Shown here: one piece after another, positions 7,462 to 57,062 of the stretch
How positions within the stretch are numbered: position 1 is the first letter of the stretch
How the letters are laid out: each line of letters begins with the position of its first letter
Source of the DNA: Alphaproteobacteria bacterium
Lineage (GTDB): Bacteria; Pseudomonadota; Alphaproteobacteria; JAJFFI01
Assembly (NCBI GenBank): GCA_030066595.1
Contig: JASJBI010000023.1
Location: 85,717-149,716, forward strand
Direction: 5' to 3'
DNA length: 64,000 nt
The notes under the pieces: model-generated
The model's database searches: none
What the model was told of the DNA's origin: nothing
What the model saw: the letters and a program-made list of their open reading frames with translations, nothing else
Translations under genes and position numbers: made by a program

Positions 7462-7956
7462 ATGTACGCGGTCCGCCTCTGGTCGGTGCGCCACGCCAAG
7501 GGGCTGAACCGCCTCTATCACGCATTCGAGTGGGTGATCCGCCGGCTGCACCCCCTGTGCGCGCGGATCGGCTATGACCGGCTCGAGCGCCCGGTGGCGG
7601 CGGTCGAGAAACCGATCAAGGAATTCCTGTTCGACTGTCGCATGTGCGGCCAGTGCGTTCTGTCCGAGACCGGCATGTCCTGCCCGATGAACTGTCCCAA
7701 GGCGCTGCGCAACGGGCCCTGCGGCGGGGTGCGGGCGGATGGCGGCTGCGAGGTCGAGCCCGAGATGCGCTGCGTCTGGGTCGCCGCCTGGGAGGGCGCC
7801 CAGCGCATGGGCACGGAGCCGACCCTGGCGCTGCAGGCGCCCGTAGACCACAGCCTGCTCGGCCGCTCCTCCTGGCTGCGCGTGGTCCGCGCGCTCGGCC
7901 AAGAGGCCCAGCCTGTGGCGGACGAAGGCCGCAAGGGGGCGACGGTGCCGCGATGA
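7462..7956 (+). CDS. MTHFR C-terminal-domain (MetV-like) Cys-rich protein
   Basis: Cys cluster CRMCGQCVLSETGMSCPMNCPKALRNGPCGG; SD GAGGGAG 10 nt upstream; ATGA stop/start overlap with the downstream metF-like gene. Confidence 0.6.
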   Translation: MYAVRLWSVRHAKGLNRLYHAFEWVIRRLHPLCARIGYDRLERPVAAVEKPIKEFLFDCRMCGQCVLSETGMSCPMNCPKALRNGPCGGVRADGGCEVEPEMRCVWVAAWEGAQRMGTEPTLALQAPVDHSLLGRSSWLRVVRALGQEAQPVADEGRKGATVPR

Positions 7957-10016: not shown

Positions 10017-10324
10017 GGCCGTTCCCTTGCCTCGCGATGCCGGCGAGTCGACGGGGATTCTAGCACAGTCATGTCGGATTTAGACAAGTAAAGCGGGCCC
10101 AACTCCCTGGTCTTTCTTGCCTCTCTCGGGCCAGGATTGCCGGGATGAGCGGCCCGCATCCCGACCGGCCGCCGCCATTCTCTGGTCAGAATCGAAATGT
10201 TGTTTCCGGGCCGGCGGGTCTATCATGTGTCGCCCAGCGCGGGATCCGAGCGCGGCGCCCGTAAGACGACTTGCGACCGCCGGCCGAGATTTGGCGCTGA
10301 CCGAGAGTGCATGAGTAGGAACAC

Positions 10325-10576
10325 ATGAAGCTCGTATTGGCCGTGTTTCTTGCCGTCGTCGCGGCTTCGGTCGTGACTTTCGTGCGGTATGAGAGCTTCA
10401 GCCCGTGCGTCTGGATGGAGCAGGATCTGGCTGAACAGTCCGGCCTGCCGGTGCTTGTCGTCCAGAGCCGGATCCGCGCAGGCTTTCTGATCGAGGGCGT
10501 GGTCGATCCCGATCCCTACGACTGCGTCCTTGCCTGGTGGCGATTCAGAGCGGAGGGGCTGCCCGAGGAGTCTTGA
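10325..10576 (+). CDS. small hypothetical protein with N-terminal TM/signal segment
   Basis: 83-aa ORF, MKLVLAVFLAVVAASVV hydrophobic start, purine-rich stretch before the ATG; no recognisable family. Confidence 0.3.
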   Translation: MKLVLAVFLAVVAASVVTFVRYESFSPCVWMEQDLAEQSGLPVLVVQSRIRAGFLIEGVVDPDPYDCVLAWWRFRAEGLPEES

Positions 10577-39199: not shown

Positions 39200-41776
39200 C
39201 TATTCCCCCGCCGCCGCGCTCTCTTGCGCGACCTCGGCCAAGCGCGTGTCGGCGACCGCACGAATATCCGCCTCCAGCACGGGATTGGCCCGCAGCAGCT
39301 TGCGGAAATCGCGGTCCTCGAGCACCAGCAGGTGGCAATAGCCCACGGCGACCACATCCGCGGTGCGCGGCCGGCGGGTCAGGAGGGCAAGCTCGCCGAA
39401 GAACTCGCCGGGTCCGAGGCTGATTGGCCCCCCGGCAACGTGCACCTCGACCGCGCCCGCGACCACGAAGTACATCTGCCCGCCCTGCGCCCCCTTGCGG
39501 ACCAGACGTTCGCCTGGCAGCGCAAGTCGGGGGCGCAGCAGCTGGGCGATGGCCATCAGCCGTTCCTGCTCCAGATTGGCGAACAGCGGCACCCGGCCGA
39601 TCATCTCCAGCAGGTCGAAGCCGAGATCGAGCTGCGGCCGGTGCTCCAGCGCGGCGCGGCGAACCCGCAAGTCCTCGAGCAGATGGTTGTAGAGCTCCCG
39701 CCCGATCAGCGACTCCTGGAAGCGGTCGTGATACTCGGCCGCCTCCACGCGCAGGGCCACACGCTGCAGATACTGCCGGCGCAGCGCTGCCGTGTAGCCG
39801 GGGTAGAGCAGCTCGAGGGCGGACAAAGCGTCTTCGACCGCCTGACGCCGTCGCACAAGCAGGTCCGAAAGCGCGTCGCTGCAGTCTGCTCCGAGCAACG
39901 GGTGGATGGCCGTGCGGTTGAAGCGGATCAACTCGGCCAGCACCAGACGCAGGATGATGAGCGTTTCGAAGCGGTCCGCCAGCACCCGGGCCAAAGGAGC
40001 GCTCCAGCCCAGGCGCCGATGCAGCCAAAGCGCCACCCGAAACGCCCGCGAGAGCTGAACGTCCATCTGGCTCGCCCGTTCGTAGCCGGCCTCGCCCGCC
40101 GTCTTGACCCGGTCGACCAGGCGATTGGCGCTTGCGACGAACCGGCCGACCATGCGGCGCGAGATGGTCCGCTCCTCGAAATGTTTCAGGTAGAGCTGCT
40201 TTTCCCGATTGGCCAGCGTCATCAGGCCGATCTGCTCCATGTCATGCAGTCGCGCCGCCCCGGCGGGCGCCCCTTCCGCCGAATCCGAGGGCGGCGACAC
40301 AGCGTCCGAGTCCAGGCCGTATTCCCGCGCCACGGCCCGCACCTCTTCGCCCACGACCTGGCGCGAGAGCGCCATGACCCGATCCCTGAGCGCCCGCTCG
40401 GTCGGGCTCAACTGGTCGAGCTTCAGCGCGTGCAACAACGGCCGCAGGCTGGGCGCGCCGGCGAACAGGGTGAACAAGACATAGGCGGTCGCCAGCACGG
40501 CCACGAAATTCTGGATCTCGCCCGGCACGAACGGGTTCTCATACACCGCCAGCGCCAAGGCGAGTGTGACCGCGCCGCGCAGCCCACCCCACAGGATCAC
40601 GGCCTTGTAGCGATGCCCGATCGGCTCGCCGAGACCGGCCGCGACCAGAGCCGGCCAGAGCCCGTACAGCACCAGCGCCCGCGCCGCCAGCGCGGCCGCC
40701 ACCAACAATGCCAACAGCCCAACATCCGCGGCGCGCGCCTCGGGCAGCACCTGCGCCGCCAGCATGGACGCCAGGATGAAGATCATCGAGTTGGCCCAGA
40801 ACTCCAGGTGGCGCCAGGTCTGGGTGAGCGTGCCCCAGGTCGCCGGCGCCAGCCGCGTCCGGCCGTACACCGCGAAGGTCAGGGCCGCGGTGACCACGGC
40901 GACCACGCCGGACACCGACAGCCAGACTTCCGCCACCAGATAGGACATATAGGCCAGCGGCACCGTCAGAGTGATCTCGGCGACCGAGATCTCGCGCAGC
41001 CAGGGCAGAATGGCGCAGGTGGCCGCGGCGATGAGGTAGCCGAACAGCGCCCCGCCGACCATGACCAAGAGGAAGTTCAGGACGCCGGCCGCGGGTCCCA
41101 CACCGCCGGCGCCGGTCACCATCGCCAGCAGCACCACGAAGCCGGCGATCGCGGCGGCGTCGTTGAACAGGCTTTCGCCCGCCACCAGGATCGAGAGCCG
41201 TCGCGGCGCGCCGATATCCCGGAACAGCGCCACGACCGCCGCCGGATCGGTGGGCGCGATGATCGCGCCCAAGAGAAGACAGGCGACCAGGCCCAGTTGG
41301 GTGACCGCCGAGAGCGCGCCGCCCACCACCAGAATGGAGACCACCACGGCGACGACCGCAAGCAACAGCACCGCCGCGAACTCGTCGATCAGCAGCCGCA
41401 CGTCGATGGTCAGCCCAGCGGTGAACAGGAGCGGCGGCAGGAAGATCAGCAGCAGCGCATCGGTGCCGAGCTCGAGCCCCGCCAGTCCCCTGAGGATGGT
41501 CTCGGCGATGCCCGGCTCGGCCCCTTCGCCCAGCGCGTTGGCGATAAATCCGAGGCCGAGCCCGAACGCCGCCAGCAGCATGGCCGGCGGCAGCATGAGA
41601 CGCTCGGCCAGCGGCATCAGGAGGCTCACGCAGGTGAGCAGCACCATGACGGCGAGGACGGTGACGAAGATCTCCGGCATCAGCGACTCCGCGACCGACG
41701 GGCCGGCACAATGCCCGATGATGGCGCCTGGCGCCAGCGCCAACGGCGCCAGCATGGCGCGCTCCAGGGCTCCCAC
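39200..41776 (-). CDS. NhaP-type Na+(K+)/H+ antiporter (CPA1) fused to C-terminal cyclic-nucleotide-binding domain
   Basis: ~420 aa polytopic CPA1 exchanger, regulatory linker, then cNMP-binding fold (GEFFGELALL...RTADVVAV). Track start is GTG; alternative starts at Met8/Met33. Confidence 0.8.
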   Translation of the reverse strand: MGALERAMLAPLALAPGAIIGHCAGPSVAESLMPEIFVTVLAVMVLLTCVSLLMPLAERLMLPPAMLLAAFGLGLGFIANALGEGAEPGIAETILRGLAGLELGTDALLLIFLPPLLFTAGLTIDVRLLIDEFAAVLLLAVVAVVVSILVVGGALSAVTQLGLVACLLLGAIIAPTDPAAVVALFRDIGAPRRLSILVAGESLFNDAAAIAGFVVLLAMVTGAGGVGPAAGVLNFLLVMVGGALFGYLIAAATCAILPWLREISVAEITLTVPLAYMSYLVAEVWLSVSGVVAVVTAALTFAVYGRTRLAPATWGTLTQTWRHLEFWANSMIFILASMLAAQVLPEARAADVGLLALLVAAALAARALVLYGLWPALVAAGLGEPIGHRYKAVILWGGLRGAVTLALALAVYENPFVPGEIQNFVAVLATAYVLFTLFAGAPSLRPLLHALKLDQLSPTERALRDRVMALSRQVVGEEVRAVAREYGLDSDAVSPPSDSAEGAPAGAARLHDMEQIGLMTLANREKQLYLKHFEERTISRRMVGRFVASANRLVDRVKTAGEAGYERASQMDVQLSRAFRVALWLHRRLGWSAPLARVLADRFETLIILRLVLAELIRFNRTAIHPLLGADCSDALSDLLVRRRQAVEDALSALELLYPGYTAALRRQYLQRVALRVEAAEYHDRFQESLIGRELYNHLLEDLRVRRAALEHRPQLDLGFDLLEMIGRVPLFANLEQERLMAIAQLLRPRLALPGERLVRKGAQGGQMYFVVAGAVEVHVAGGPISLGPGEFFGELALLTRRPRTADVVAVGYCHLLVLEDRDFRKLLRANPVLEADIRAVADTRLAEVAQESAAAGE

Positions 41777-42148: not shown

Positions 42149-43804
42149 GTGAGGGGAGGCCTCGAGATGGCGACAGACCATGCATTGATGCAAGAGGAGA
42201 TGCGGGCCAAATCCGGCTGGCTCAAAGGGCTCAATCCGGAAGTGGCGCTGATCTCCAAATTCATCGTATTCGCCTTGGTTATCTTTGCGGCGATCTGGAC
42301 GAAGGAGGCGGGCGGCCTGTTCTCCGCCGTCAAGGATTGGATGGTGACCGGGCTGAAATGGTACTACATCGGCATTGTCGCCATCTTCCTGTTCTACTGC
42401 TTCTGGCTGCTGATCAGCCGCTACGGCAACATCCGCCTGGGCCGCGACGACGAGCGCCCGGAATTCAGCTATTTCTCCTGGTTCGCGATGCTGTTCGGGG
42501 CCGGCATGGGCATCGGACTGGTGTTCTGGAGCATCGCCGAGCCGATGTACCATTTCGACAGCAATCCGTTCATCGCGGAAGGCCAGTCCCAGACCGCCGA
42601 AGGCGCCAGGACGGCGATGCGGATCACCTTCTTCCACTGGGGCCTCCACCCCTGGGCGATCTACGTGATCGTGGCGCTGTCGCTGGCCTACTTCGCCTAT
42701 CGGCGCGGCCTGCCCCTGTCGATCCGATCGTCGTTGTATCCCTTGATCGGCGACCGGATTTACGGGCCGATCGGCCATGCTGCGGACATCCTGGCGATCT
42801 TCGGCACCGTGTTCGGCGTGGCGACCTCGCTGGGCCTCGGCGTGCAGCAGATGGCCACCGGCCTGTATGAGCTCACCGGCGCCGAGATGTTCATTCAGCT
42901 CGACGCCGAGGGCAACCAGGCGCCCAACACCGCCGCGATGCTGGTGCTGATCGCGATCATCTCGGCCATCGCCACGGTCTCGGTGGTCTCGGGCGTGGGC
43001 AAGGGCATCCGCATCCTGAGCGAGCTCAATCTCTGGCTCTCCATCTCGATCCTGGTGTTCCTACTGGTCTTCGGGCCGACGCTGTTCCTGCTGGAATCCC
43101 TGCTGCAGGCGACTGGCGACTACCTGCAGCACGTCATCCCGCTGAGTTTCTGGACGGCGGCCAACATCGAGACGCCGTGGCAGGGCTGGTGGACCGCGTT
43201 CTACTGGGGCTGGTGGATCTCCTGGGCCCCCTTCGTGGGCATGTTCATCGCCCGCATCTCCCGCGGCCGGACCATCCGCGAATTCGTGCTGGGGGTCCTG
43301 CTGGTGCCCACGCTGCTGGCCTTCGTCTGGCTGACGCTGTTCGGCGGCACCGCGCTCCACATCGAGCTGTTCGGAGACGGCGGCATCGTCGAGGCGGTGA
43401 AGAAGGACGTGACCGTCGCCCTCTACACCACGTTCGCAAAGATGGACGTGGGCTTCGTCGGCACCCTGTTCTCGGCCGTGGCGACCTTGCTGATCGCCAC
43501 CTACTTCATCACCTCGTCCGATTCCGGCACGCTGGTGGTGAATACGTTGATGTCGGCCGGCGATCCGAATCCGCCCACGGTGCACCGGGTGATCTGGGGC
43601 CTCGGTGAAGGTGCCGTGGCCGCCGTGCTGTTGGTGGCGGGCGGGCTGTCGGCGCTGCAGACCGCCTCGATCACCGGCGCCCTGCCCTTCTCGGTGATCA
43701 TGATCTTCATGTGCATCGGGCTGACCAAGGCGTTGAGCGAAGAGCAGGTCGGGCCGCAGTTCGCGCCGGCGGCCAGTGGCGGCGGCGCGCCTGCCGGCGA
43801 ATAG
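42149..43804 (+). CDS. BCCT-family (betaine/carnitine/choline) transporter
   Basis: 551 aa, 12 TM, BCCT signature-like Trp-rich segment (WTAFYWGWWISWAPFVGMFIARIS); possible start MATDHAL at 42167. Confidence 0.85.
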   Translation: MRGGLEMATDHALMQEEMRAKSGWLKGLNPEVALISKFIVFALVIFAAIWTKEAGGLFSAVKDWMVTGLKWYYIGIVAIFLFYCFWLLISRYGNIRLGRDDERPEFSYFSWFAMLFGAGMGIGLVFWSIAEPMYHFDSNPFIAEGQSQTAEGARTAMRITFFHWGLHPWAIYVIVALSLAYFAYRRGLPLSIRSSLYPLIGDRIYGPIGHAADILAIFGTVFGVATSLGLGVQQMATGLYELTGAEMFIQLDAEGNQAPNTAAMLVLIAIISAIATVSVVSGVGKGIRILSELNLWLSISILVFLLVFGPTLFLLESLLQATGDYLQHVIPLSFWTAANIETPWQGWWTAFYWGWWISWAPFVGMFIARISRGRTIREFVLGVLLVPTLLAFVWLTLFGGTALHIELFGDGGIVEAVKKDVTVALYTTFAKMDVGFVGTLFSAVATLLIATYFITSSDSGTLVVNTLMSAGDPNPPTVHRVIWGLGEGAVAAVLLVAGGLSALQTASITGALPFSVIMIFMCIGLTKALSEEQVGPQFAPAASGGGAPAGE

Positions 43805-43872: not shown

Positions 43873-43994
43873 CCGGCAGCGGGCGCAATCCAGCCCTGGA
43901 CATTGCTTACCGCCCAAGCATCCGTCCTCTATAATCGAGTATGAGGGACGCCACAGCGGCTCCTTGCAGAGCCGCGCCAGCGGAATGCGAACGC

Positions 43995-45395
43995 ATGCCA
44001 AGGCTGCCACTCGTCGTCATTTTCCTGCTCACCCTGCTTTCCGGCGGCGCGGTCGGCGCGGAGCCCCTGATCCCGATCCTGAACCTCAAGGGACCGATCG
44101 GCCCTGCCACCTCGGACTATGTCGAGCGTGGTCTCGAGCAGGCGCGCGAGCAGGGTGCCGAGGCCGTCGTCTTGCGGATCGACACGCCGGGCGGGCTCGA
44201 CAGCGCGATGCGCGACATTATCAAGTCCGTTCTGTCGTCGCCGGTGCCGGTCGTGGCCTATGTGGCGCCGAGCGGCGCCCGCGCGGCCAGCGCCGGGACC
44301 TACATCCTGTATGCGAGCCACGTGGCCGCCATGGCGCCGGGAACCAGCGTGGGGGCGGCGACGCCGGTCCCGATCGGGCTGCCGAGCCCGCTGCCGTCAC
44401 CACCACGTCCGGAACGCCAACCGGAGAAAAACGGAGAGCCGGACGAAGAGCAAACAACCGACGACACGCCGCCGCGCGAGCCAAAACCGGCTGTACGCCC
44501 AACCATGGGCGACAAAGCGGTCAGCGACGCGGCCGCCTACATCCGCAGCCTCGCCCGGATGCGCGGGCGCAACGCCGACTGGGCCGAGAAGGCGGTCCGC
44601 GAGGCGGCGAGTCTCGGCGCCGAGGAGGCGCTCGAGATCGGCGTCATCGACATCGTCGCCCCCACCCTTGAAGATTTGCTGGCGCAGCTCGACGGGCGCC
44701 AGGTCGTCGTGCTGGGACAGACACGGTCTCTCTCGACGAAGGCGGCGCGAACAGTGGAGATCGAAGCCGACTGGCGGACCGAGCTCTTGGCGGTGATCAC
44801 CAATCCGAACGTGGCCTACATCCTGATGCTCGTCGGCATCTATGGCCTGATGTTCGAGTTCATCAACCCGGGCGCGCTGGTGCCGGGAATCGTCGGCGCC
44901 GTCTGCCTCGTGCTTGCGCTCTATGCCCTAAACGTGCTGCCCATAAACTACGCCGGTCTCGCGCTGATGCTGCTGGGCATCGGGCTGATGACCGCCGAGG
45001 CCTTCGCGCCCAGCTTCGGGGTGCTGGGCATCGGCGGCGCGGCCGCGTTCGCGATCGGCTCCGTGATCCTGTTCGAGGCCGGCGGCCCCCATTTCGCGGT
45101 GTCCTGGGCGGTGGTCGGCGCCGTCGCTTTGAGCAGCCTCGCCTTTTCCATGATCGTGATTGCGATGGCGGTCAAGGCGCGCCGTCGACCGGTGGTGACC
45201 GGGCGGCGGGAGATGATCGGCAGCAAGGGGCAGGTGTTGGAATGGTCGGGCCGCACGGGACGGGTGCGGACGCACGGTGAGATCTGGCAGGCGTCCGCGC
45301 ACACGCCGCTGGAGCCGGGACAGGAGATCCGTGTCGCCAGCCTTGAGGAGCTCACTCTTGTGGTCGAGCCCGTGCCGAAGAAGGATGAGCAATGA
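43995..45395 (+). CDS. NfeD-like membrane-bound serine protease (ClpP-class)
   Basis: ORF trimmed to MPRLPLVV; periplasmic ClpP-like domain (IDTPGGL...), Pro-rich linker, TM region and C-terminal OB-fold domain. Confidence 0.8.
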
Positions 45396-46192
45396 TGCCT
45401 GAACTGACTTACGCGCCCTATGTCTTCGTCGTCCTGCTGCTCGCCATTCTGGCGGTCTCGCTCAAGATCCTGCGCGAGTACGAGCGCGGTGTGATCTTTT
45501 TGTTGGGCCGGTTCTGGAAGGTCAAGGGGCCCGGGCTGATCATCGTCATCCCGGTGATCCAGCAGATTGTGCGGGTCGATCTGCGCACGCGCGTCCTCGA
45601 TGTGCCCGAGCAGGACGTGATCTCCCGCGACAACGTCTCGGTGAAGGTCAACGCGGTGGTGTATTTCCGCGTCATCGACCCGCAGAAATCGATCATTCAG
45701 GTCGAGGATTTCCACGCCGCCACCAGCCAACTGGCCCAGACCACGCTGCGGTCGGTGCTCGGCCAACACGAGCTCGACGAAATGCTGGCCGCGCGGGAGC
45801 GGCTCAACGACCACATCCAGAAGATCCTGGATGCGCAAACAGACGCCTGGGGGATCAAGGTCTCCAATGTCGAGCTCAAGCATGTCGACCTGGACGAGAG
45901 CATGATCCGCGCCATCGCCAAGCAGGCGGAGGCGGAGCGCGTGCGCAGGGCCAAGATCATCAACGCGGAGGGCGAGCTGCAGGCGGCGGAGAAACTCTTG
46001 CAGGCGGCGGAGATCATCGCCCAGGAGCCCGAGGCGCTGCAGCTTCGTTATTTCGGCGCGCTGCACGATATCGCCAGCGAGCGCACGTCGACGATCGTAT
46101 TTCCCCTGCCCATCGACATCCTGAGCGCCTTCCGACGGCTTGGCGGCAAAGCTGCGGGAGAGGAATCAGGTGGCGCGCCTGCCGGAGAATAG
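45392..46192 (+). CDS. SPFH/band-7 (stomatin-like) protein
   Basis: N-terminal TM then SPFH domain ([34 protein letters not shown]); ATGA overlap with nfeD. Confidence 0.85.
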
Positions 46193-46316: not shown

Positions 46317-47804
46317 ATGAATCCGGCCGATATCCTTGCCGAGCACGCGCGCACCAGACCCGACCACCCGGCCATCGAGGACGGCGACCGGATCGTCAAT
46401 TACGGTGAATTGAACGACCGCGTCGCAAGCGCGGCCGCCAACCTGCAACGCGCCGGGATCGAGCCCGGAGACATCGTCGGCATCATGCTGCCGGACTCGG
46501 CCGACTACCTGATCACGCTTTGCGCCGTGGCGAATGCCGGCGCGGTTACCTTCGCGATCGATCCCCAGCTACCGCCCAGGGAGAAGGAGTGCAGCCTGGT
46601 TGACGTGCCCGTGAAGGCGATCATCGCGCAGGCGGATGCGCAACCCGTGCCCAATGTCACCCGTCTTCCGCTCGACCGGGTGGTGCGGCCGCAAGCGGAG
46701 AACCCAGAGCCATTCGTCGCGCCGAACCTCCAGCCAGACCATCCGCATACCTTCGTCCAAACGTCAGGCACAACCGGCAATCCAAAGCGGCTCCTCTTGA
46801 GCCATGCCCAAAGAGCCGACTTCATAGAGCGCAACATGCGTACGGAAGGTTGGGTTTCGACCGACCGGTACCTGGCCGTCGTGCAGATGACATTCAGCAT
46901 CGGACGCGTGAGCTGTATCGGCATGCTCCATATCGGTGCAACGGTGGTCATCAACTCTGCAACCTCCGCCGCAGAGTTGGTCTCCCGGGTACAAGATCAG
47001 CGGATCACGATCCTACGCCTGACATCCGCCCATCTGCGCGGACTGCTCGACCACGCCGCTCACCGTTCTGCGGATGACCTGCCCCTGTTCCCGAACCTGC
47101 GTATGCTGGCCGTGACCGCGGCGCCGACCGCGCACGAACTGCGTCTGCTCGTGCGAACATCTCTAACACCGAATTTGCTCGAGCGATACGGAACCAACGA
47201 AATCGGGGTTGTCGCGGTGTCGGCACCCCCCGACCAGGACGCTTACCCGGACTCGCTTGGGCGCGTGATCGACGGTATCCAAGCGCAGGTCGTGGATGCC
47301 AACGACCAGCCCTTGCCCTCGGGCCAGGCCGGCTTGATTGGATTTCGCGGACCGAGATTGCCAACCGAGTATTATCGAAATGCGGAAGCGACCGCCCAGT
47401 GTTTTCGAGATGGCTGGTTCTATCCCGGCGATCTGGCCGCCTTGAACGAAGACGGCTACGTGTTCTTCAAGGGTCGGGCGGATGACGTCATCAACAACCA
47501 AGGCGCCAAGTTCTATCCCGTCGAAATCGAGACCGTTCTGTTGTCGCATCCGGCCGTGACGGAGGCGGCGGTCTTCGGCTGGCCGCATAAGCAGTTTGGA
47601 GAGTGCGCAGTGGCCGTCGTCGTAGCCAAGGCGCAGATCACGGCTGAGGCGCTGGCCCAGTTCTGCCGGGAACGTATTGCCGCATACAAGGTGCCGGTCT
47701 GGATCATGTTTGTGTCGGCGATGCCCAAGAACCCGATGGGCAAGATCGTCAAGGCCCGGCTCAGAGAGATGTTCCGAGGGCAAACGGCCCGGCAGTCGGA
47801 ATGA
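46317..47804 (+). CDS. adenylate-forming (ANL) acyl-CoA ligase, paralog 1 of 3
   Basis: TSGTTGNPK, GWFYPGDLAAL, DGYVFFKGRADD, AYKVPVWIMFVSAMPKNPMGKIVK; 495 aa. Confidence 0.85.
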   Translation: MNPADILAEHARTRPDHPAIEDGDRIVNYGELNDRVASAAANLQRAGIEPGDIVGIMLPDSADYLITLCAVANAGAVTFAIDPQLPPREKECSLVDVPVKAIIAQADAQPVPNVTRLPLDRVVRPQAENPEPFVAPNLQPDHPHTFVQTSGTTGNPKRLLLSHAQRADFIERNMRTEGWVSTDRYLAVVQMTFSIGRVSCIGMLHIGATVVINSATSAAELVSRVQDQRITILRLTSAHLRGLLDHAAHRSADDLPLFPNLRMLAVTAAPTAHELRLLVRTSLTPNLLERYGTNEIGVVAVSAPPDQDAYPDSLGRVIDGIQAQVVDANDQPLPSGQAGLIGFRGPRLPTEYYRNAEATAQCFRDGWFYPGDLAALNEDGYVFFKGRADDVINNQGAKFYPVEIETVLLSHPAVTEAAVFGWPHKQFGECAVAVVVAKAQITAEALAQFCRERIAAYKVPVWIMFVSAMPKNPMGKIVKARLREMFRGQTARQSE

Positions 47805-47871
47805 GCCCGGTAGAACCAGCCCGGCGCAAGCGGCCTGGCCCGGCTCAAGCGACGATCACGGATCCCCTGCA

Positions 47872-49356
47872 ATGAACCTCGCGGATATCCTGAGCCGTCA
47901 TGCGGAGACCCGCCCGGACCGCCCGGCCATCGAGGACGGCGATCGGACGATCACGTATGGGGAGCTCGATGTCCGCGTGACCGACGCGGCAGCACGGCTG
48001 CAGGCGGCCGGGGTGCGGTCAGGCGACGTCGTCGGCGTCATGCTGCCGGACTCGGCCGACCATTTGATCGTGCTCTGGGCACTCGCGCGGGCCGGCGGCG
48101 TGGCGCTCTCGCTCAATGCGGCACTGCCGATGACTGAGAAGCTCCGAAGTGTCGCCCAGGTCGATGTCACGCACTTGATCACGGATCCGGGCAGCCCTGG
48201 GGTCGGGGATCTGCGCGTTCTGCCGGTACAGGACGTCGTAACCAGCGCGCCGCCAGAGGCAACCGAAACGGCGCCCTTCGTCGCCCCCGCGCTCCGGCCC
48301 GAGGCCCCCGTCACGATGCTGCAGACGTCCGGAACCACGGGCGCCCCGAAACTGATTGTGCGCAGCCACGCGCAGTTCAAGGACTACATCCGGCGAGACC
48401 AGCAGGGCCATGGCTTCACGCCAACCGATCGATACCTGGCCGTGGTCCGGATGTCCTTCTCCTTCGGGCGCGACAGCTGTCTCAGCATGACCTACATCGG
48501 GGCGACGGTCGTCATCGACCGCTCCACTTCCCGGGATGGCCTGATCGCCGCCGTGCGGGAAGAACGGATCACGGCCTTGATCCTCACCCCGGCGCATCTG
48601 CGCGCCCTTCTCGACCACGCCGACGTCGATGGCGTCCTGTTTCCCCAAGTCCGGGCACTGGTCGTGGGCTCGGCGGCAGTCACCTCCGAGGAACGGCTGC
48701 GCGCACGCCTGCGGCTGACACCCAGCCTGCAGGAACGATATGGTCTCAATGAAACCGGGGCCATCGCTGTTGCCGCTCCGGCCGATCAAGACGCCGTGCC
48801 CGACGCCGTGGGGCGATTGCTGGACGGAATCGACGCACAAGTCGTGGATTCCGACGGCCGGCCCTTGCCCACTGGGGAAGTCGGGTTGATCGGCTTCCGT
48901 GGAGCGCACTTTCCGACAGGGTACTTCCGAGACCCGGACGAGACGGCGCGCGCCTTCCGCGACGGTTGGTTCTATCCCAGTGATCTCGCGGCCCTGAACG
49001 ACGATGGATATGTCTTCCTCAAGGGCCGGGCGGACGACGTCATCAGCAACGAAGGCGCCATGTTCTACCCGATCGAAGTGGAGAACGTCCTGCTTATGCA
49101 CCCGGCCGTGGCCGAGGTGGCGGCCTTCGGCTGGCCGCACCCCCGGCAAGGCGAGGTCACGGCGGCGGCGGTCGTAATGAAGTCCGCCATCTCGTTCGAT
49201 GAGCTGTTCCGCCATTGTCAGCAGCACTTGGCGGCATACAAAGTGCCCAAAATGATCCTCGCGGTTCAGGAGATGCCCAAGAACCCGATGGGCAAGATCG
49301 TCAAGGCCCAGCTCAAGGAGCTCTTGCGGAAGGAACTGGCAAAGGATTCTACTTAA
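47872..49356 (+). CDS. adenylate-forming (ANL) acyl-CoA ligase, paralog 2 of 3
   Basis: ORF trimmed to MNLADILSRH (atg 47872); same motif set as paralog 1, near-identical C-terminal third. Confidence 0.85.
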   Translation: MNLADILSRHAETRPDRPAIEDGDRTITYGELDVRVTDAAARLQAAGVRSGDVVGVMLPDSADHLIVLWALARAGGVALSLNAALPMTEKLRSVAQVDVTHLITDPGSPGVGDLRVLPVQDVVTSAPPEATETAPFVAPALRPEAPVTMLQTSGTTGAPKLIVRSHAQFKDYIRRDQQGHGFTPTDRYLAVVRMSFSFGRDSCLSMTYIGATVVIDRSTSRDGLIAAVREERITALILTPAHLRALLDHADVDGVLFPQVRALVVGSAAVTSEERLRARLRLTPSLQERYGLNETGAIAVAAPADQDAVPDAVGRLLDGIDAQVVDSDGRPLPTGEVGLIGFRGAHFPTGYFRDPDETARAFRDGWFYPSDLAALNDDGYVFLKGRADDVISNEGAMFYPIEVENVLLMHPAVAEVAAFGWPHPRQGEVTAAAVVMKSAISFDELFRHCQQHLAAYKVPKMILAVQEMPKNPMGKIVKAQLKELLRKELAKDST

Positions 49357-49483
49357 CCACGAGAGCCGCCCGGTCGGCCATCTTGCCCGTCCCCCGAGCG
49401 GCGCTGGGATCTCCCGGCGCAAACGGGCGAACGGCGAGACGACCGCATCCTGGGAGGCGCCTTAACGCCCAAGAGGGACTACC

Positions 49484-50950
49484 GTGAACATTGCCGATGC
49501 TCTGAGAGATCATGCCCGCGACCGGCCGCACCATCCGGCGATCGAGGACGGCGACCGCGTCATCACCTATGCCGAGCTCGACGCGCTCGTGGACGCGGCG
49601 GCGGCCAATCTGCAGGCCGCCGGCATCGCGCCCGGCGACGTCGTCGGCATGACGCTGCCGGATTCCGCCGAGCACCTCATCATGTTTTGCGCCGCGGCGC
49701 GTGCCGGCGCCGTCATGCTGGCGATCGACAACGCATTGCCGCTGGCCGAGAAACAACGGCTCGTTGCGAACGCGAACCCGCGGGCGCTGATCGCGACGGC
49801 GGGCTCTCAGACGATCGGCGACCTGCCCGTCTTGCCGGTCGGCAAGATCTGTGGGCCGGCAACGTCGGCATTCGAGAGACCGGTCCTCGAGGCGGACCAC
49901 CCGCTCATCATCGCTCAATCGTCGGGAACAACGGGCGTGCCGAAATCCTTCCTGTGGAGTCACGCCCAAATGCATGAGCAGGCTCGTCGGCATCAGAGGT
50001 TCCTCGGCCTGTCGTGGCAGGACCGTTATCTGGCCGTCATCAGGATGAGCTTCGTCTGGGAACGCAAGACCTGTTTGATCTTGTTTTGCCTGGGCGCGAC
50101 GATTGTCGTGAATCACACCCGGTCCGTGGAAGACCTCGTCATGCGCGTGGCCGCGGGCCGGATCACGGTGCTGATCCTGACGCCCGCGCACCTGACGCAC
50201 ATTCTCGGATACCCGTCCGACCAGGCCCCTTTGTTTCCGTCGTTGCGTGTGATGCTCGTGGGCGGCGCGCCGCTCGCGCACCAAGACCGCATTCTGGCGA
50301 AAGAGCGGCTGACGCCGAGTTTCTATGAACAGCTTGGCACCAACGAGACCGGTTTCATGATTCTGTCAACGCCCGCCGACCAGGATGCCCATCCGGATGC
50401 CGTCGGGCGCGTCATCGAGGGAATCGAGGCACAGGTGTTGGACGCGGACGGGCACCCCCTGCCGCCGGGCGACGTGGGGTTGGTCGGCTTCCGCGGTGAG
50501 GTTTTCCCGACCGAATACGTCAACAACCCCAAGGACACGGCGCGCGCCTTCCGCGACGGTTGGTTCTATCCCGGCGATCTCGCCGCCATCGATGCGGATG
50601 GCTACTATTTCTTCAAGGGCCGGGCGGACGACATCATCAGCAACGAAGGCACCAAATTCTACCCGATCGAAGTGGAGAACGTCCTGCTTATGCACCCGGC
50701 CGTGGCCGAGGTGGCGGCCTTCGGCTGGCCGCATCCGGCGCACGGCGAAATGGCCGCGGCGGTGGTCACAACGAAAGCGCCGGTAGGCGCAGAGGAGCTG
50801 GAGCAGTTCTGCCGAGAACGCGTCGCCTATTACAAGGTGCCGGCTTGGATCATGATCGTGTCGGCGATGCCCAGAAACCCGATGGGCAAGATCGTCAAGA
50901 CCCGGCTCAAGGAGATGTTGCGCGCGGAACTCGCCAAGGCTTCGCCCTGA
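49484..50950 (+). CDS. adenylate-forming (ANL) acyl-CoA ligase, paralog 3 of 3
   Basis: GTG start after AGAGGGA; MNIADALRDH...; same motif set. Confidence 0.85.
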   Translation: MNIADALRDHARDRPHHPAIEDGDRVITYAELDALVDAAAANLQAAGIAPGDVVGMTLPDSAEHLIMFCAAARAGAVMLAIDNALPLAEKQRLVANANPRALIATAGSQTIGDLPVLPVGKICGPATSAFERPVLEADHPLIIAQSSGTTGVPKSFLWSHAQMHEQARRHQRFLGLSWQDRYLAVIRMSFVWERKTCLILFCLGATIVVNHTRSVEDLVMRVAAGRITVLILTPAHLTHILGYPSDQAPLFPSLRVMLVGGAPLAHQDRILAKERLTPSFYEQLGTNETGFMILSTPADQDAHPDAVGRVIEGIEAQVLDADGHPLPPGDVGLVGFRGEVFPTEYVNNPKDTARAFRDGWFYPGDLAAIDADGYYFFKGRADDIISNEGTKFYPIEVENVLLMHPAVAEVAAFGWPHPAHGEMAAAVVTTKAPVGAEELEQFCRERVAYYKVPAWIMIVSAMPRNPMGKIVKTRLKEMLRAELAKASP

Positions 50951-50986: not shown

Positions 50987-51460
50987 CTATCCGCCGAGAT
51001 GCAACAGCTCGGGCCGGATCATCCAGGCGACCGTCCAGGCGCCGGCCTCGTCCCGCTCGAGACAGAGCAGGCTGCCCGGCCGGAAGGCCGCAACGGCAGG
51101 CTCCTCCCGTCCCGTCAGCAGCCGGGAGGCGAGCCGCGCCATGAAGGGCAGATGCCCGACCAGCACCGTGTCCTCCGCCATACCCTGCGCCTCCGCCGCG
51201 ATCGGCTCGACCGGATCGTTCGGCGCGAGCCCGGCGGCGGTCTCGATCGCCGCCTGCGGCGCGATGCCGCGGGCCAGCGCCTCGGCCGTCTCGCGCGCCC
51301 GGGTCTTGCCGCTGTGCACCACGCGGTCGGCGCTGACGCCCTGCCGCTCAAGGAACCTGGCCAGCGCCTCCACGTCGGCGCGGCCGGCGCTGGTCAGCGG
51401 CCTGTCCGGGTCGACGTCCTTCGGCGCCGCCTCGCCGTGCTGGACCAGATAGAGCTTCAT
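50987..51460 (-). CDS. histidine-phosphatase superfamily protein (SixA-like phosphohistidine phosphatase)
   Basis: N-terminal catalytic motif LYLVQHGEA (RHG-type His), C-terminal His region (LVGHLP); 157 aa as for SixA. Confidence 0.7.
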
Positions 51461-51831
51461 GCCAGCGCCTCCACGGTGATCGGGGCGCCGTCCCGCACGG
51501 GCGCCAGCGTGCGCACATCCTCCACCGCCCGGCCCCAGATGTTGGTCGGCGCGGCCAGCCGGATCTCGTCACCGCGCGAGATCGGCGTACGTCCGAAGCC
51601 GATGGCGATCGCGTCGCCCTCGACCCAGAAGGCGAGTTCGCCCGGCTCGACCACGTCGCGCGCGCCTGCCTCCCGGTCGACCTGGACCGGCGTCGAGAAG
51701 TAGACCTCCTCGCCCCAGGTCCGCGCGTCCGACGTGAACGGCAGGCTCTCGTGAATCGCATCCGCCGTCGGCGTCTCGAACAGCTCGGCGGTCAGAACGA
51801 CCGAGCCGATGGTCATCTTGATCTTGCGCAT
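51457..51831 (-). CDS. cyclophilin-like-fold protein (PF04126-type, function unknown)
   Basis: [23 protein letters not shown]...[17 protein letters not shown] resembles the conserved TM1367-like cyclophilin-like family; start chosen at Met8 of the ORF to avoid a 16-nt overlap. Confidence 0.55.
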
Positions 51832-51836
51832 GTCGT

Positions 51837-52622
51837 TCAGTCCTCCGACCATTTGGTGCGCATCTTCGGCACGGGCTGGCCGTCGACGAGGATGTCGTCC
51901 ACCCGCTCGTTATAGAAGCACAGATAGCCCTTGATCCGCGGGCATTCCGGGATCGGCTCCGGATAGGTCCAGACGATGTCGTCATAGCTGCGCCCGCCGA
52001 TCCGCGCCGAATAGTAGCTTGCGGTCCCCTTGTAGGGGCACTGCGTGTGGCTGTCGCTCGGGGTCAGGAGATCCATCCGGACATCGTCCGGTGGGATGTA
52101 GTAGCGCGTCGGCAGGCCGGTTTCGAACAGAAAGCGCGCCTGCGTCGTCTCCGCGACCGTCTCGCCGCCGAGCACGACCCGGACCGGCCGGGACGAGTTG
52201 ACCACGTCGACGCGGGAGTAGGGATCGCGTGCGTGCACGAACACCTCTTCGTCCTCCTCGTACCAGTGGTCCATGGGGTCCCAGTAGAAGGCGACATGGC
52301 CCTTGATGGCCGCGACCTGTTCGATCGGCGTCTCATAGCTCCAGGCGGCATTCTCGGCGCTTTTGTCGCCGACCCGCACCGTCCAATAGGAGGCATCGCC
52401 CTTGTAGGGGCAATGCGTACGATGTTCGCTCGGCGCCAGCAGATCCGTACGCACGTCCGTACGCGGAAAATAGTAGACGGGCAAATGCCCGGTCTCGTGC
52501 AGCAGCAACATGTCGGTGCTGTCGGCGACCGTCTCGCCGGCGAAGGCGACCCGCACCCGGCGCGGGCTCGGCTCCACGATCACCCGATGGCCGGGGGCAA
52601 GTGGATCGGCGATCAAGGGCAT
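51837..52622 (-). CDS. tandem DUF427-domain protein
   Basis: Two repeats of the DUF427 pattern ([13 protein letters not shown]..., YYFPxxDVRxDLLxPSxxxTxCPYKGxASYW...). Confidence 0.7.
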
Positions 52623-52655
52623 GGCTTGAACTCCTTGCCTGCGCGACGGGGCAAC

Positions 52656-53537
52656 TCAGGTGCCGACCTTGAGCGGGGCGACAAGCCCGCGCAGCGTCGC
52701 GATCACGCTCAAGGCGGTGATGCGGCCGGTGCGCGGGTTCTCCTCGGTCGGCACGTTCTCGATGGTCATGGTAAAGCGCGCGCTGTCCGCGTCCACGGTG
52801 ATGGTGTGGGTATTCCGGCTGACCCCCGGGTCCGCCCAGATCTCGAGCCGGGTCCGGTCCGGGCCGATGCCGGCCAGGCTCAGCGCCGCGGCCACGTTGA
52901 CATTGGCCGGAAAACCCGCGACGCCGTCCCGCGCCGTCCCCTCGAAGACCTTGCGCGGCTCGGTGAGACCCTCGAGCGAGATGCCCTGGCGCTCCAAGTG
53001 GGGCGCGCCCGCGAGCCCCGAGGGCGGCTTGCGCGTGACCAACGTCACCGAGCGGATCTCGCCTTCGGCGGCCGCGCGCACCGCGTCGAGGCCCAACAGC
53101 GCGCCGGTCGGCGCGACGATGCGGGCACCGGTCTCCCCCGCCAGCGCGACCAGTTCCGGTCGGGCCAGCAGAGCGCCGACGCTGACCGGCAGGAAAATCC
53201 GGCCGGCCCGGATGGCGGGCTCGGCGATCCGGTCGAACACCGCGGCCGGCGCGCACTCGACGACCACCTCGGCGTGCTCGGGGAGGCTCTCGAGGGCCAC
53301 CACCGGGACGGGATTACCGAAATCTTCCAGGCGCCGCCGCGCGTCGTCCACCCGTCGGGCCGAAACTGCCGCCAGGACAAGGCCGGGCACGCCGGCATCG
53401 AGGCGCCGGGCAACGGCCCGCCCGATGGCGCCGAACCCACCCAATGCCACGCGCAGATCGCGCCGCGGTCCCCCATCCGGCTGTTGCTGGCTTTCGCCCA
53501 TGAGCATGCTCTCCACTGATTTCATCGATATCGACAA
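52656..53537 (-). CDS. aspartate dehydrogenase-family (NadX-like) NAD(P)-dependent dehydrogenase
   Basis: Rossmann LGGFGAIGRAVARRL and a C-terminal domain matching the NadX/DUF108 family; exact start (Met1/5/11/13) uncertain. Confidence 0.75.
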   Translation of the reverse strand: MSISMKSVESMLMGESQQQPDGGPRRDLRVALGGFGAIGRAVARRLDAGVPGLVLAAVSARRVDDARRRLEDFGNPVPVVALESLPEHAEVVVECAPAAVFDRIAEPAIRAGRIFLPVSVGALLARPELVALAGETGARIVAPTGALLGLDAVRAAAEGEIRSVTLVTRKPPSGLAGAPHLERQGISLEGLTEPRKVFEGTARDGVAGFPANVNVAAALSLAGIGPDRTRLEIWADPGVSRNTHTITVDADSARFTMTIENVPTEENPRTGRITALSVIATLRGLVAPLKVGT

Positions 53538-53697
53538 GGTCGGGCAATGGTTGGAGCTTATTCTTGGATTAGGCTAGTCTCTCCGCCCGAACAAGCACAA
53601 GGCGCCGGCTGTTTGCAACGGCCGGCCGGGGACAGGGCCGGAATGCCTGGGCCAGGTCCCCGACATTGTCGAAACGTTTGCAGGTGGGAGGCAACGA

Positions 53698-54666
53698 ATG
53701 ACCAAGCGGATGAATGCAGCTTTCATTGCCGCGGCTGCGGCTCTGGCCGTGGTCATTTCCGGCCCAGCCGGAGCGGCGGATATTTCGTGCAGCACGGCCA
53801 AGCTGATCGTGCCGTGGAAACCGGGCGGCGGCACGGACGTGATCTTTCGCGTCATTGCCGAGGCCGTGAACAAGGCCGGCGCGAAGCCCCAGATCCAGGT
53901 CGTCAACATTGCCGGGCAAGGCGGCAACAAGGGTGCCAAGGAGGCCGTAAAGGCCAAGCCAGACGGCTGTACGCTGTTCGCGATCCATCAGAGCGCCATG
54001 ACCAGCTATCTGAACGGCCGCGTCGACTTCACCTGGGACGCGTTCGAGCCGGTCGCGATGGTGACCCACACGCCGTCGATCATCGGCGCCAACAAGGGCG
54101 TGCCCTATGAAGACGTCGCGGGACTGGTGGACAACGCGAAGAAGAACCCGGGCAAGGTTCTGGCCGGCGGCACGCTGGGCTCAACCAGCCATTTCATCTT
54201 TATCCTGTTGGAGGACGCGGCCGGCATCAAGCTCAAGCACATCTCCTATGACGGCACCCGCGAGCGGATGACCGCGCTGTTGGCCGAGAACATCCAGGTC
54301 GGCGAGATCAACGTCACCGCCGCCCAGAAGTACATCGCCAGCAAGGAGCTCAAGGCCTTGGGCATCGCTACCGCGGAGCGGGACCCCCGCGTGTCCGAGG
54401 TCAAGACGCTCAAGGAGCAGGGCATCGACCTGGTGTTCGGCCTGGATCGGGGCGTTATGCTGCCCAAAGGGACTCCGGCGGACATCGTGAAGCACCACGA
54501 GGCGGCCCTGTCCAAGGCGATGAACGACCCGGCCGTGAAGGCCGCGCTCGAGGGCAAGGGCAGTTCCGTGCGCTATCTCGGCAGCGCGGACTACCGCAAG
54601 CATCTGGCCGGCAGCTTCGAGGAGCTCAAGACAGCCGCCATCAAGGTCGGCCTCTACAAGCAATAG
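53698..54666 (+). CDS. tctC: tripartite tricarboxylate transporter substrate-binding protein TctC (Bug family)
   Basis: Signal peptide, Bug-family pattern (VPWKPGGGTDV...), 322 aa. Confidence 0.85.
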   Translation: MTKRMNAAFIAAAAALAVVISGPAGAADISCSTAKLIVPWKPGGGTDVIFRVIAEAVNKAGAKPQIQVVNIAGQGGNKGAKEAVKAKPDGCTLFAIHQSAMTSYLNGRVDFTWDAFEPVAMVTHTPSIIGANKGVPYEDVAGLVDNAKKNPGKVLAGGTLGSTSHFIFILLEDAAGIKLKHISYDGTRERMTALLAENIQVGEINVTAAQKYIASKELKALGIATAERDPRVSEVKTLKEQGIDLVFGLDRGVMLPKGTPADIVKHHEAALSKAMNDPAVKAALEGKGSSVRYLGSADYRKHLAGSFEELKTAAIKVGLYKQ

Positions 54667-54830: not shown

Positions 54831-55352
54831 GTGAGGGAATCAGGGGGCAGCATTACGGGAACCATGCGGAGTATCCGGCGCGACACGCTGGTCGCCTTGG
54901 GCCTGCTGCTGATCTGCGGCACCTTCTTCGCGGCCAGCTTCGACATCCGCGAGACCAGCTACGCTTCGCTGGGCTCCGAGGTGTGGCCGCGGGTGATCCT
55001 GGCGGTGCTGTTCGTGCTCTCGCTCGCCCTCTTGGCCCAGTCGCTGCGGGTCAAGGACGCGCCCGCACAAGCCGAGCATGCGGGACTCGGCGCCTGGTTC
55101 GCCGCCTACCGCAACCCGCTCTGGTGCTACCTGCTGTTCGGCCTCTATCTCCTCACTCTGCCCTATCTCGGCATGCTGGCCGGCGGCGCGCTGTTCGTGT
55201 TTGCCACCTTGACGGCGATCGGCCGGCGGGATCTGCGCGCGCTCGCCATCAATGCGGTCATCGGCATCGGCATGGTCGGCTTCATGTGGACCGTGTTCCG
55301 CTACGGTCTGAACGTGATCTTGCCCGAAGGCGAGCTGTTCTATGGCTGGTGA
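54831..55352 (+). CDS. tctB: tripartite tricarboxylate transporter TctB-family small membrane protein
   Basis: ~160 aa, 4 TM, sits between tctC and tctA; start possibly MRSIRRD (54864). Confidence 0.7.
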   Translation: MRESGGSITGTMRSIRRDTLVALGLLLICGTFFAASFDIRETSYASLGSEVWPRVILAVLFVLSLALLAQSLRVKDAPAQAEHAGLGAWFAAYRNPLWCYLLFGLYLLTLPYLGMLAGGALFVFATLTAIGRRDLRALAINAVIGIGMVGFMWTVFRYGLNVILPEGELFYGW

Positions 55353-55376: not shown

Positions 55377-57062
55377 GTGATCTTCGACAACATCCTGGCG
55401 GCGAGCGGCGCGATCTTCGAGATCGGCACCATCGCGCTCATGTTCCTGGGCGTGACCGCGGGGCTGATCGCCGGCGCCATTCCGGGCTTCACCATCGCCA
55501 TGGCGGTCGTGCTGACCCTGCCCTTCACCTTCGGCATGACCGCGGTCCAGGGCGTGGCGACCATGATCGGCGTTCTGGTCGGCGGCCTGTCGGGCGGGCT
55601 CATGGCCGGCATGCTCACGGGCATTCCTGGCACGCCGTCCTCGGTCGCGACCACCTTCGACGGCTTCCCCATGGCGCGCAAGGGCCGGCCGGGCCTGGCC
55701 CTCGGTCTGGGCGTCTGGTCGTCCTTTTTCGGCGGCATCATCGGCGCCATCGTGCTGGTCACCCTGGCGCCGCAGCTCGCCCGGGTCGGCCTCGAGTTCG
55801 GCCCCTGGGACTACTTCGCGCTGGTCATGTTCGCGCTCACCATCACCGCGAGCCTGGCCGGCGACAATCTGCTCAAGGGGCTGATCGCCGGCGCGCTCGG
55901 GCTCTTGGCCGCGACCATCGGCGAGGACGAGGTGAATGGCGTCGCCCGCTTCACCTTCGGCGCGGACGCCTTCGAGCAGGGTTTCGCTTTCCTGCCGGTC
56001 CTCGTCGGGCTGTTCGCCTTCAGCCAGCTGCTCTCGGACGTCAAGGACCGGGACAAGGCGCTCGAGCCGCTCATGGCCAGGGGCACCAAGGCGGTCCGGG
56101 TCGAGCACCGTAGGGCGATCGTCGAGGTGCTCAAGCGCTGGACCACGCTCCTGCGCTCGGCCCTGATCGGCGTCTTCACGGGCATCCTGCCGGGCGCCGG
56201 CAGCTCGGTCTCGAACATCCTCGCCTACGATCAGGCCAAGAAGGCGTCGAAGACCCCGGAGGACTTCGGCAGCGGCATCCCCGACGGCATCGTCGCACCG
56301 GAATCCTCGAACAACGCGACCGAGGGCGGCGCGCTCATTATGCTGATGGCGCTGGGCATCCCCGGCGACGTGATCACGGCGGTGATGCTGGGCGCGCTCC
56401 TGATCCACGACGTCATCCCGAGCCCGTCCTTCATCTCGGACGAGCCGGTGCTGGCCTACAGCATCTTCATCGCCTTCTTCCTGGCGCATTTCATCATGGT
56501 CACCATGCAGGCGGTCTGCCTGCGCGCCTTCGTGTTGATCACCCGGGTGCCCATGTATGTGCTGGCGGCGATCATCCTGGCCTATTGCGCGATCGGCGTG
56601 TTCGCCCTGAACAACGTGGAGTTCGACCTCTGGACGCTGTTCATCTTCGGCGTCATCGGCTACCTGCTGCGCTCGTTGGGCTTTCCGCTCGCGCCGATGA
56701 TCCTGGGCGTGGTGCTGGGCAACATCGCCGAGCTGAACCTGAACCGCGCCTGGTCGATCGAGCCCAGCCTGACGCCTTTCCTGACCCGCCCCTGGTCGCT
56801 CCTGTTCTTCACCTTCGCGCTCTTCTCGGCCGCCTTCCCCTGGTACCAGAAGCACCGCCGGGAGATGAAGTGGACGCTCGTCTATCTGCCGCTCTTCTGC
56901 ATCGCGGTGTCGGGACCGCTGGCGCTGATGGACGGATGGGTCCGCCCGGTGCTGGGCGCCGGCCTCCTGGTGTTCGGTACCGTCACCCTCGTGCGCCGAG
57001 CCCGGGCCGGCTGGCGGATCGAGCGCCCGCCCGCGCCACCCTCCCGGAGCGAAGAGACTTAG
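55377..57062 (+). CDS. tctA: tripartite tricarboxylate transporter TctA-family large membrane protein
   Basis: 561 aa polytopic; GTG start; typical TctA Gly-rich segments (GVLVGGLSGGLMAGMLTGIPG). Confidence 0.85.
   Translation: MIFDNILAASGAIFEIGTIALMFLGVTAGLIAGAIPGFTIAMAVVLTLPFTFGMTAVQGVATMIGVLVGGLSGGLMAGMLTGIPGTPSSVATTFDGFPMARKGRPGLALGLGVWSSFFGGIIGAIVLVTLAPQLARVGLEFGPWDYFALVMFALTITASLAGDNLLKGLIAGALGLLAATIGEDEVNGVARFTFGADAFEQGFAFLPVLVGLFAFSQLLSDVKDRDKALEPLMARGTKAVRVEHRRAIVEVLKRWTTLLRSALIGVFTGILPGAGSSVSNILAYDQAKKASKTPEDFGSGIPDGIVAPESSNNATEGGALIMLMALGIPGDVITAVMLGALLIHDVIPSPSFISDEPVLAYSIFIAFFLAHFIMVTMQAVCLRAFVLITRVPMYVLAAIILAYCAIGVFALNNVEFDLWTLFIFGVIGYLLRSLGFPLAPMILGVVLGNIAELNLNRAWSIEPSLTPFLTRPWSLLFFTFALFSAAFPWYQKHRREMKWTLVYLPLFCIAVSGPLALMDGWVRPVLGAGLLVFGTVTLVRRARAGWRIERPPAPPSRSEET

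Follow-up and report, generated by a model that had tools for sequence, protein, structure and literature searches.

L-Aspartate dehydrogenases (AspDHs) of the NadX family are known from the mesophiles Pseudomonas aeruginosa, Ralstonia eutropha, Bradyrhizobium japonicum and Rhodopseudomonas palustris, and the enzymes of the latter two, which are alphaproteobacteria, have been reported as L-aspartate dehydrogenases. In Thermotoga, the canonical role of the family is the supply of iminoaspartate to NadA. In the metazoan 2-aminomuconate reductase, the catalytic His is displaced by two residues relative to its place in prokaryotic AspDHs. Among the tripartite tricarboxylate transporters (TTTs), binding proteins are known for aspartate (BugD) and glutamate (BugE) in Bordetella, and Bug27 and Bug69 are given as binding proteins for quinolinate or nicotinate (PMC11452294). 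TTT receptors hold the proximal carboxylate of the ligand via two water molecules in a loop, and the GGGTD form of this loop corresponds to A15-G16-G17-D20 of BugD (PMC5812351). A literature search returned no paper linking an aspartate dehydrogenase with a TTT. Here, we describe a 64,000-nt stretch of contig JASJBI010000023.1 (the window) from the metagenome-assembled genome of an uncultured alphaproteobacterium, in which the gene of a NadX-like dehydrogenase stands head to head with the tctC, tctB and tctA genes of a TTT importer and is followed by three genes for a tandem DUF427 protein, a cyclophilin-like protein (CypL) and a SixA-like protein. Of the adjacencies compared, that of the divergent tctCBA and nadX genes alone recurred across several separate lineages.

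The four genes of the string are open reading frames (ORFs) on one strand between 50987 and 53507, and the importer genes run in the opposite direction:

50987 to 51460, minus strand, SixA-like protein (TIGR00249)
51457 to 51831, minus strand, CypL, 124 aa, cyclophilin-like protein of the TM1367 type (PF04126)
51837 to 52622, minus strand, tandem DUF427 protein with two PF04248 domains
52656 to 53501 or 53507, minus strand, NadX-like dehydrogenase; the longest ORF runs from TTG 53537, and ATG 53507 or 53501 is the likely start
53508 to 53697, intergenic region from which nadX and tctC diverge, holding the motif CTAGCCTAATCC at 53577 to 53566 on the minus strand
53698 to 54666, plus strand, tctC, periplasmic solute-binding protein of the TTT (PF03401, 125 bits)
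54831 to 55352, plus strand, tctB, small membrane subunit (PF07331, 59 bits)
55377 to 57062, plus strand, tctA, large membrane subunit (PF01970, 453 bits)

The gap between nadX and the DUF427 gene is 33 nt and that between the DUF427 and CypL genes is 5 nt, and the CypL and SixA genes share a 4-nt ATGA overlap. These coordinates agree with the original prediction, a reading of the letters of the window, which had described four closely packed minus-strand genes with this spacing. Its assignment of the products to NadX, DUF427, PF04126 and SixA was upheld by profile searches, in which all four scored above the curated cut-offs, and coordinates and domains confirmed that tctCBA diverges from the string and that three ANL (AMP-binding) ligase genes converge on it. 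The prediction erred in counting SixA among the families without an assigned function, since SixA is a phosphohistidine phosphatase.

The sample anchored on NadX comprised five orthologues, 70 to 76% identical to the window protein, which lie on long contigs outside the narrow clade of the window organism (L178, L179, L180, L182 and L183; L numbers denote homologous loci). In four of these five loci (L178, L179, L180 and L182), tctC, tctB and tctA were head to head with nadX; L183 was the exception and does not have the pair. The identical divergent layout was present in the window and in two loci of its clade, L014 and L181. The TctC proteins encoded beside nadX were 60 to 65% identical to the window TctC in L178, L179, L180 and L182 and 83% identical in L014, whereas a second TctC of L180 was merely 30% identical, indicating that the TctC proteins beside nadX are orthologues and not chance members of the TctC family. 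The TctB orthologues were 46 to 51% identical and the TctA orthologues 69 to 74% identical (L178-L182), and TctA reached 91% in L014. Because L178 and L182 are syntenic, they were counted as one lineage. By lineage, the pair was found in four of five (L178/L182, L179, L180 and the window clade, but not L183), compared with none of 157 control loci drawn from the CypL- and DUF427-anchored sets described below (Fisher p ~2e-7). The link between the dehydrogenase and tctCBA that the prediction had drawn thus recurs in several separate lineages.

What follows nadX differed between the lineages outside the clade: an M23 peptidase gene, an ICMT gene on the opposite strand or a DUF1217 gene on the opposite strand. 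This indicates that nadX has no conserved downstream partner in those lineages, where it may be transcribed alone. Upstream of nadX, the window, L014 and L181 share an identical CTAGCCTAATCC, and L179 has the similar CCTAGCCTACC. A scan of positions 53508 to 53697 for the sigma-70 consensus found nothing. The motif may be a nadX promoter element or an operator.

The conservation of the whole string was studied by anchoring the comparison in turn on CypL, on tandem DUF427 and on NadX. For CypL, one genome of each species was scanned, which yielded 80 loci (66 to 84% identical) with up to 10 kb of flanking sequence. The remaining window proteins served as tblastn queries for the partners in these loci, 74 of which had 800 bp or more of upstream flank. 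NadX and DUF427 were found alongside CypL in one genome of the 80. This locus, L014, belongs to the closest relative (CypL 84% identical) and carries NadX (78%), DUF427 (76%), CypL and tctCBA in the order of the window, with no SixA. The second-closest relative (L015) lacks NadX and tctCBA; SixA (56%), tandem DUF427 (58%) and CypL (81%) are encoded there inside 3.3 kb (7071 to 10375) on differing strands, with DUF427 and CypL opposite to each other. This grouping may be a leftover of ancestral synteny or may reflect a weak connection of the three genes. At the other 78 loci, no partner gene was present within 10 kb of CypL. In a de novo clustering of the ORFs neighboring CypL, no family exceeded 13 of the 80 loci, and the recurrent neighbors were generic (ABC ATPase, SDR, SnoaL, dihydroorotate dehydrogenase and 5'-3' exonuclease). 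Three contig look-ups around CypL were equally variable.

The DUF427 anchor gave 79 non-self metagenome loci, 59 to 71% identical, in addition to L098, which is the window copy (100%). None of the 79 had NadX, CypL, SixA or TctC in its flanks, and the contexts differed again in three look-ups and in two plasmid contexts. With NadX as the anchor, DUF427, CypL and SixA did not follow nadX at any of the five loci outside the clade. In a close relative (L181; a contig of 2.9 kb, NadX 78% identical), NadX, DUF427 and CypL are present, with no SixA after CypL. The three-gene set is therefore confined to a narrow clade (window/L098, L014 and L181), and the complete four-gene set, with SixA after CypL, to the window and L098, the latter being a second assembly of the window organism. 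These results indicate that a conserved transporter-dehydrogenase pair has, in this lineage only, come to be juxtaposed with the other genes of the string. They do not bear out the "conserved operon" of the original prediction: 78 of 80 CypL loci and all 79 DUF427 loci are without the partners, and the adjacency is essentially confined to this genome or lineage, the outcome that the prediction had itself named as telling against it.

All ORFs of the window were also mapped onto L014. Directly after CypL, L014 has a 72% identical orthologue of the window gene at 39200 to 41776, which encodes a Na+/H+ exchanger with a cNMP-binding domain. The window thus has an extra block of about 9.7 kb (approximately 41.8 to 51.46 kb), reaching from a BCCT transporter gene to SixA, that is absent from L014. 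Besides SixA, the block contains the following features:

42149 to 43804, BCCT transporter
43941 to 45395, NfeD protein
45392 to 46192, SPFH protein
46317 to 50950, plus strand, three ANL ligases, converging on the string

The block was either gained in the window or lost in L014. In both cases, its absence from L014 indicates that the dehydrogenase has no stable neighbor in SixA or the ANL ligases. The G+C content at third codon positions (0.76 to 0.95) gave no sign of a foreign origin of the block. No specific NCBIfam model matched the ANL ligases at its cut-off. The second and third ligases are about 55% identical as proteins (L098 alignment), indicating that they are tandem paralogues.

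Transcription of the four genes as one unit is plausible. A scan for terminators gave three consensus matches, compared with 1.5 expected by chance, and no internal terminator stands out convincingly. The window has about 63 to 71% G+C. A Shine-Dalgarno sequence of the GGAG type precedes the start codon of each of the four genes. For CypL, the start was placed at ATG 51831 and not at 51852, because nearly all homologues listed have 123 to 127 aa and most have exactly 124; for the NadX-like protein, the length in public gene calls is 281 aa, corresponding to a start at 53501. A scan of the whole window against Rfam and a scan of the string region for the sigma-70 consensus gave no match. The sole RNA gene detected across the 64 kb of the window is a tRNA-Arg (TCG) at 22831 to 22915 on the minus strand. 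Sequence relatives with solved structures exist for all four proteins, and the functional annotation of these relatives adds nothing further.

The NadX-like protein has the Asp_DH_C domain (PF01958, 110 bits) together with NAD_binding_3 (PF03447), and it scored 375 bits against the equivalog-level NCBIfam model PRK13302, whose cut-off is 253. The Rossmann GxGxxG motif is present as GGFGAIG, and the NVNVA and ENPxT motifs are kept too. The catalytic His, in RNTHTITV, aligns with that of TM1643 (HNIHIVRI) and of the Archaeoglobus fulgidus AspDH (ENIHEILV). It is therefore at the prokaryotic AspDH position, unlike the shifted His of the metazoan reductase. Orthologues that are 70 to 78% identical are plentiful. 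A gamma-glutamyltranspeptidase gene was observed near the NadX orthologue in L180 (9611 to 11401) and in L183 (6831 to 8648), in the latter directly downstream of nadX.

AspDH homologues also occur on plasmids. In Bosea (L094) and Azospirillum (L095), genes for a sugar-type ABC transporter, a polysaccharide deacetylase, an AspDH (50 to 60% identical), an SDR protein and RraA are clustered, with amidase and RidA added on the Azospirillum plasmid only. In Rhizobium (L186) and Mesorhizobium (L187), the cluster consists of genes for a prolidase-like protein, an EhuABCD-like transporter, an AspDH (50 to 60% identical) and a GntR regulator. These two cluster types suggest that the family includes uncharacterized substrates. 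A Pseudoroseomonas plasmid carries a 59% identical homologue in the order LysR-AspDH-TctC, and this TctC is not orthologous to that of the window.

The membership of the importer in the TTT family is indicated by the presence of all three components and by the features of the receptor: TctC has an N-terminal signal-like sequence and a carboxylate-binding loop, PGGGTD. Assigning the ligand of TctC from its sequence matches in the PDB was tried and rejected, as these matches do not discriminate between ligands.

The explanation that, on balance, we favor somewhat over its being wrong is that the conserved unit is the divergent tctCBA-nadX pair, an importer and a dehydrogenase for an amino-dicarboxylate, and that the three downstream genes are passengers and not steps of a pathway. 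TctCBA would bring in a carboxylate, L-aspartate or a close amino-dicarboxylate, and the NadX-like enzyme would oxidize it with NAD(P) as the cofactor. With L-aspartate, the simplest substrate, the product would be iminoaspartate, and the imino acid would then be hydrolyzed to the 2-oxo acid (oxaloacetate) and ammonium. In the narrow clade, a local rearrangement would have placed tandem DUF427 and CypL directly behind nadX, and in the window organism alone the SixA-like gene would have been added after CypL. The three genes are probably transcribed with nadX, as passengers. The sequences establish the gene identities, their spacing and which adjacencies recur in other genomes; co-transcription, the substrate and the reaction direction are predictions. 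The working model is backed by the kept active-site motifs, the prokaryote-type catalytic His, the carboxylate loop of TctC and the precedent of the BugD and BugE receptors.

Several observations weigh against this explanation. The evidence for the pair comes from five orthologous loci outside the clade, which is a small sample. The tight spacing of NadX, DUF427 and CypL is kept across the window, L014 and L181 at 76 to 84% identity. Solved TTT receptors of differing ligands match TctC about equally (E from 1e-33 to 1e-28). The human ASPDH is a 2-aminomuconate reductase, and importers of the sugar-type ABC, Ehu-type ABC or TRAP kind are encoded next to AspDH-family members that are 50 to 60% identical to the window protein. 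Proximity to uptake systems is thus a tendency of the whole family, and these other transporters, together with the human enzyme, indicate that its substrate range is wider than aspartate.

The last of these points bears on a possible, though doubtful, alternative, in which TctCBA delivers, and the dehydrogenase converts, an amino- or imino-dicarboxylate other than aspartate. In its favor are the activity of human ASPDH and the presence of the 50 to 60% identical homologues in catabolic clusters of several kinds, among whose genes are those for amidase, RidA, RraA and prolidase-like proteins. However, the match to the equivalog-level model exceeds its cut-off, the catalytic His has the prokaryotic position and not the human-type shift, and the alphaproteobacterial enzymes of R. 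palustris and B. japonicum have been reported as L-aspartate dehydrogenases.

It is unlikely that the NadX-like protein serves de novo NAD synthesis by providing iminoaspartate for NadA, with the adjoining TTT taking up quinolinate or nicotinate. Such a role would be the canonical one of the family in Thermotoga, and the ligands of Bug27 and Bug69 would suit it. However, no Pfam family typical of NadA or quinolinate phosphoribosyltransferase was found within 6 kb of nadX in L178-L183, and none of the NadA/NadC type was seen among the window genes scanned (35.6 to 60.5 kb), so that a Thermotoga-type nadX-nadA/nadC operon is present in neither. Bug27 is also the weakest match to TctC among the solved receptors (E=1.9e-20, compared with 1e-33 for the best). 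A NAD-biosynthetic role is less likely than a role in the oxidation of an imported amino-dicarboxylate.

The tandem DUF427 protein has two PF04248 stretches (256 bits), and each domain has a CPYKG motif. Its only solved relative is PDB 3DJM (E=2.6e-14). DUF427 is a domain of the beta-tent fold, in a fold family without the zinc site (PMC4287342). Literature searches on DUF427/PF04248/NTP_transf_9 and on PF04126 returned this paper and incidental list entries, with no functional data. Plasmid-borne tandem homologues that are about 50% identical were found in unrelated contexts. At 26 of the 80 DUF427-anchored metagenome loci (L100-L103, L131-L134 and others), one or two glyoxalase/VOC genes on the same strand precede the tandem DUF427 gene; many of these loci stem from one soil series and may not be independent. 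Elsewhere, tandem DUF427 genes were observed within ABC-transporter operons (L001 and L006/L007) and after four PhyH dioxygenase genes (L005).

CypL matches PF04126 with 133 bits over profile positions 1 to 120 of 120, and its PDB relatives are 2NNZ (E=3.6e-24), 2KA0 and 1ZX8. Homologues that are 66 to 84% identical occur in 80 genomes (L014-L093) from many phyla, with no fixed neighbor. The labels of these metagenome-assembled genomes are Alpha- and Gammaproteobacteria, Deferrimicrobiaceae, Methylomirabilis, Acidobacteriota, Nitrospiraceae, Nitrospinia and SAR324. For an orphan protein, conservation on this scale is unusual. CypL had no match in 72,556 plasmids.

The SixA-like protein scored 114 bits against TIGR00249 (cut-off 74.5) and matches Escherichia coli SixA (PDB 1UJB) with E=1.4e-10. 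It retains His8, which is the nucleophile, as well as Arg54 and His103, and QHG stands in place of RHG, the change being at residue 7. The same QHG is present in the SixA-like protein of L098. Among the best 150 representatives of 50%-identity clusters, position 7 is Gln in 110 and Arg in 38. The possibility that QHG marks a decaying SixA gene was rejected, because Gln is the majority state of the subfamily and QHG is therefore a subfamily trait. The residue pattern points to an altered phosphate pocket in this subfamily. Phosphorelay or phosphotransferase system genes were not seen among the window genes scanned (35.6 to 60.5 kb). In the plasmid collection, SixA had one homologue, in Ilyobacter (40% identical).

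That NadX, tandem DUF427 and CypL form a true three-enzyme module acting on the imported substrate within the window/L014/L181 clade is also unlikely. The gene order and the spacing (24 to 33 nt and 1 to 5 nt) are kept there at 76 to 84% protein identity, and tandem DUF427 genes elsewhere are often inside transporter or oxidoreductase operons. However, these organisms are close relatives and may simply have inherited the common order. No independent lineage shows the pairing, and in L015 the DUF427 and CypL genes are on opposite strands. A broader proposal appears improbable to us: that the orthologous tctCBA-nadX pair of several alphaproteobacterial lineages is an undescribed module for uptake plus oxidation of aspartate or a related amino-dicarboxylate, to which tandem DUF427 and PF04126 proteins were added in one clade as accessory enzymes. 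If true, it would give the first physiological context for mesophilic "non-NadB" aspartate dehydrogenases and the first functional anchor for the orphan families DUF427 and PF04126.

It is highly improbable that a single conserved and undescribed pathway of carboxylate uptake, dehydrogenation or amination and activation with CoA or AMP is encoded by all four genes together with tctCBA and the three ANL ligase genes, as the original prediction proposed, since the tight packing of four genes on one strand, the true linkage of tctCBA to nadX and an ANL gene beyond tctA in L178 and L182 as well are set against a four-gene set limited to the window organism, the absence of SixA and all three ANL ligases from the L014 locus, DUF427 and CypL orthologues in unrelated contexts elsewhere and a list of 360 homologues in which no fusion joins any of the four domain families. 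Of the genes whose recurrence the prediction had proposed to check, tctCBA recurs beside nadX; the four genes co-occur only in the window and L098, and the ANL ligases are absent from L014, with an ANL gene beyond tctA in L178/L182. The proposed pathway loses its activation step, because L014 is without the three ligases, and it also loses three of its four genes.

With the tctCBA-nadX pair as the conserved unit, the locus provides no functional anchor for DUF427, PF04126 or this subfamily of SixA. All components belong to known families, and the pair is a guilt-by-association lead. The lead is testable, in that one orthologous AspDH-like group travels with its own TTT importer. To our knowledge, what mesophilic AspDHs do in the physiology of the cell is poorly defined, and ligands are known for only a minority of TTT receptors.

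Compared with known systems, the SixA-like protein resembles E. coli SixA in its above-cut-off TIGR00249 match and its three kept residues, and differs from it in the replacement of the Arg of RHG by Gln. The tandem DUF427 protein fuses two domains, unlike the single-domain protein solved as 3DJM. CypL is like the TM1367/AF2241-type cyclophilin-like proteins in its full-length PF04126 domain and its PDB sequence matches, but its orthologue group is unusually well conserved across phyla. The importer shares with the BugD and BugE systems a complete tctCBA set, a receptor signal peptide and the water-bridging GGGTD loop; unlike in those systems, its TctC is no closer to BugD and BugE than to terephthalate-binding or unassigned receptors. 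The NadX-like protein is similar to the L-aspartate dehydrogenases of Thermotoga maritima (TM1643) and A. fulgidus in its two-domain architecture, its GxGxxG, NVNVA and ENPxT motifs and the position of its catalytic His, although it matches the solved structures of the thermophile enzymes weakly (77 and 71 bits; E=2e-20 and 2e-18). The nadX gene of the window does not lie in a nadA/nadC operon and stands instead head to head with the genes of a TTT importer.

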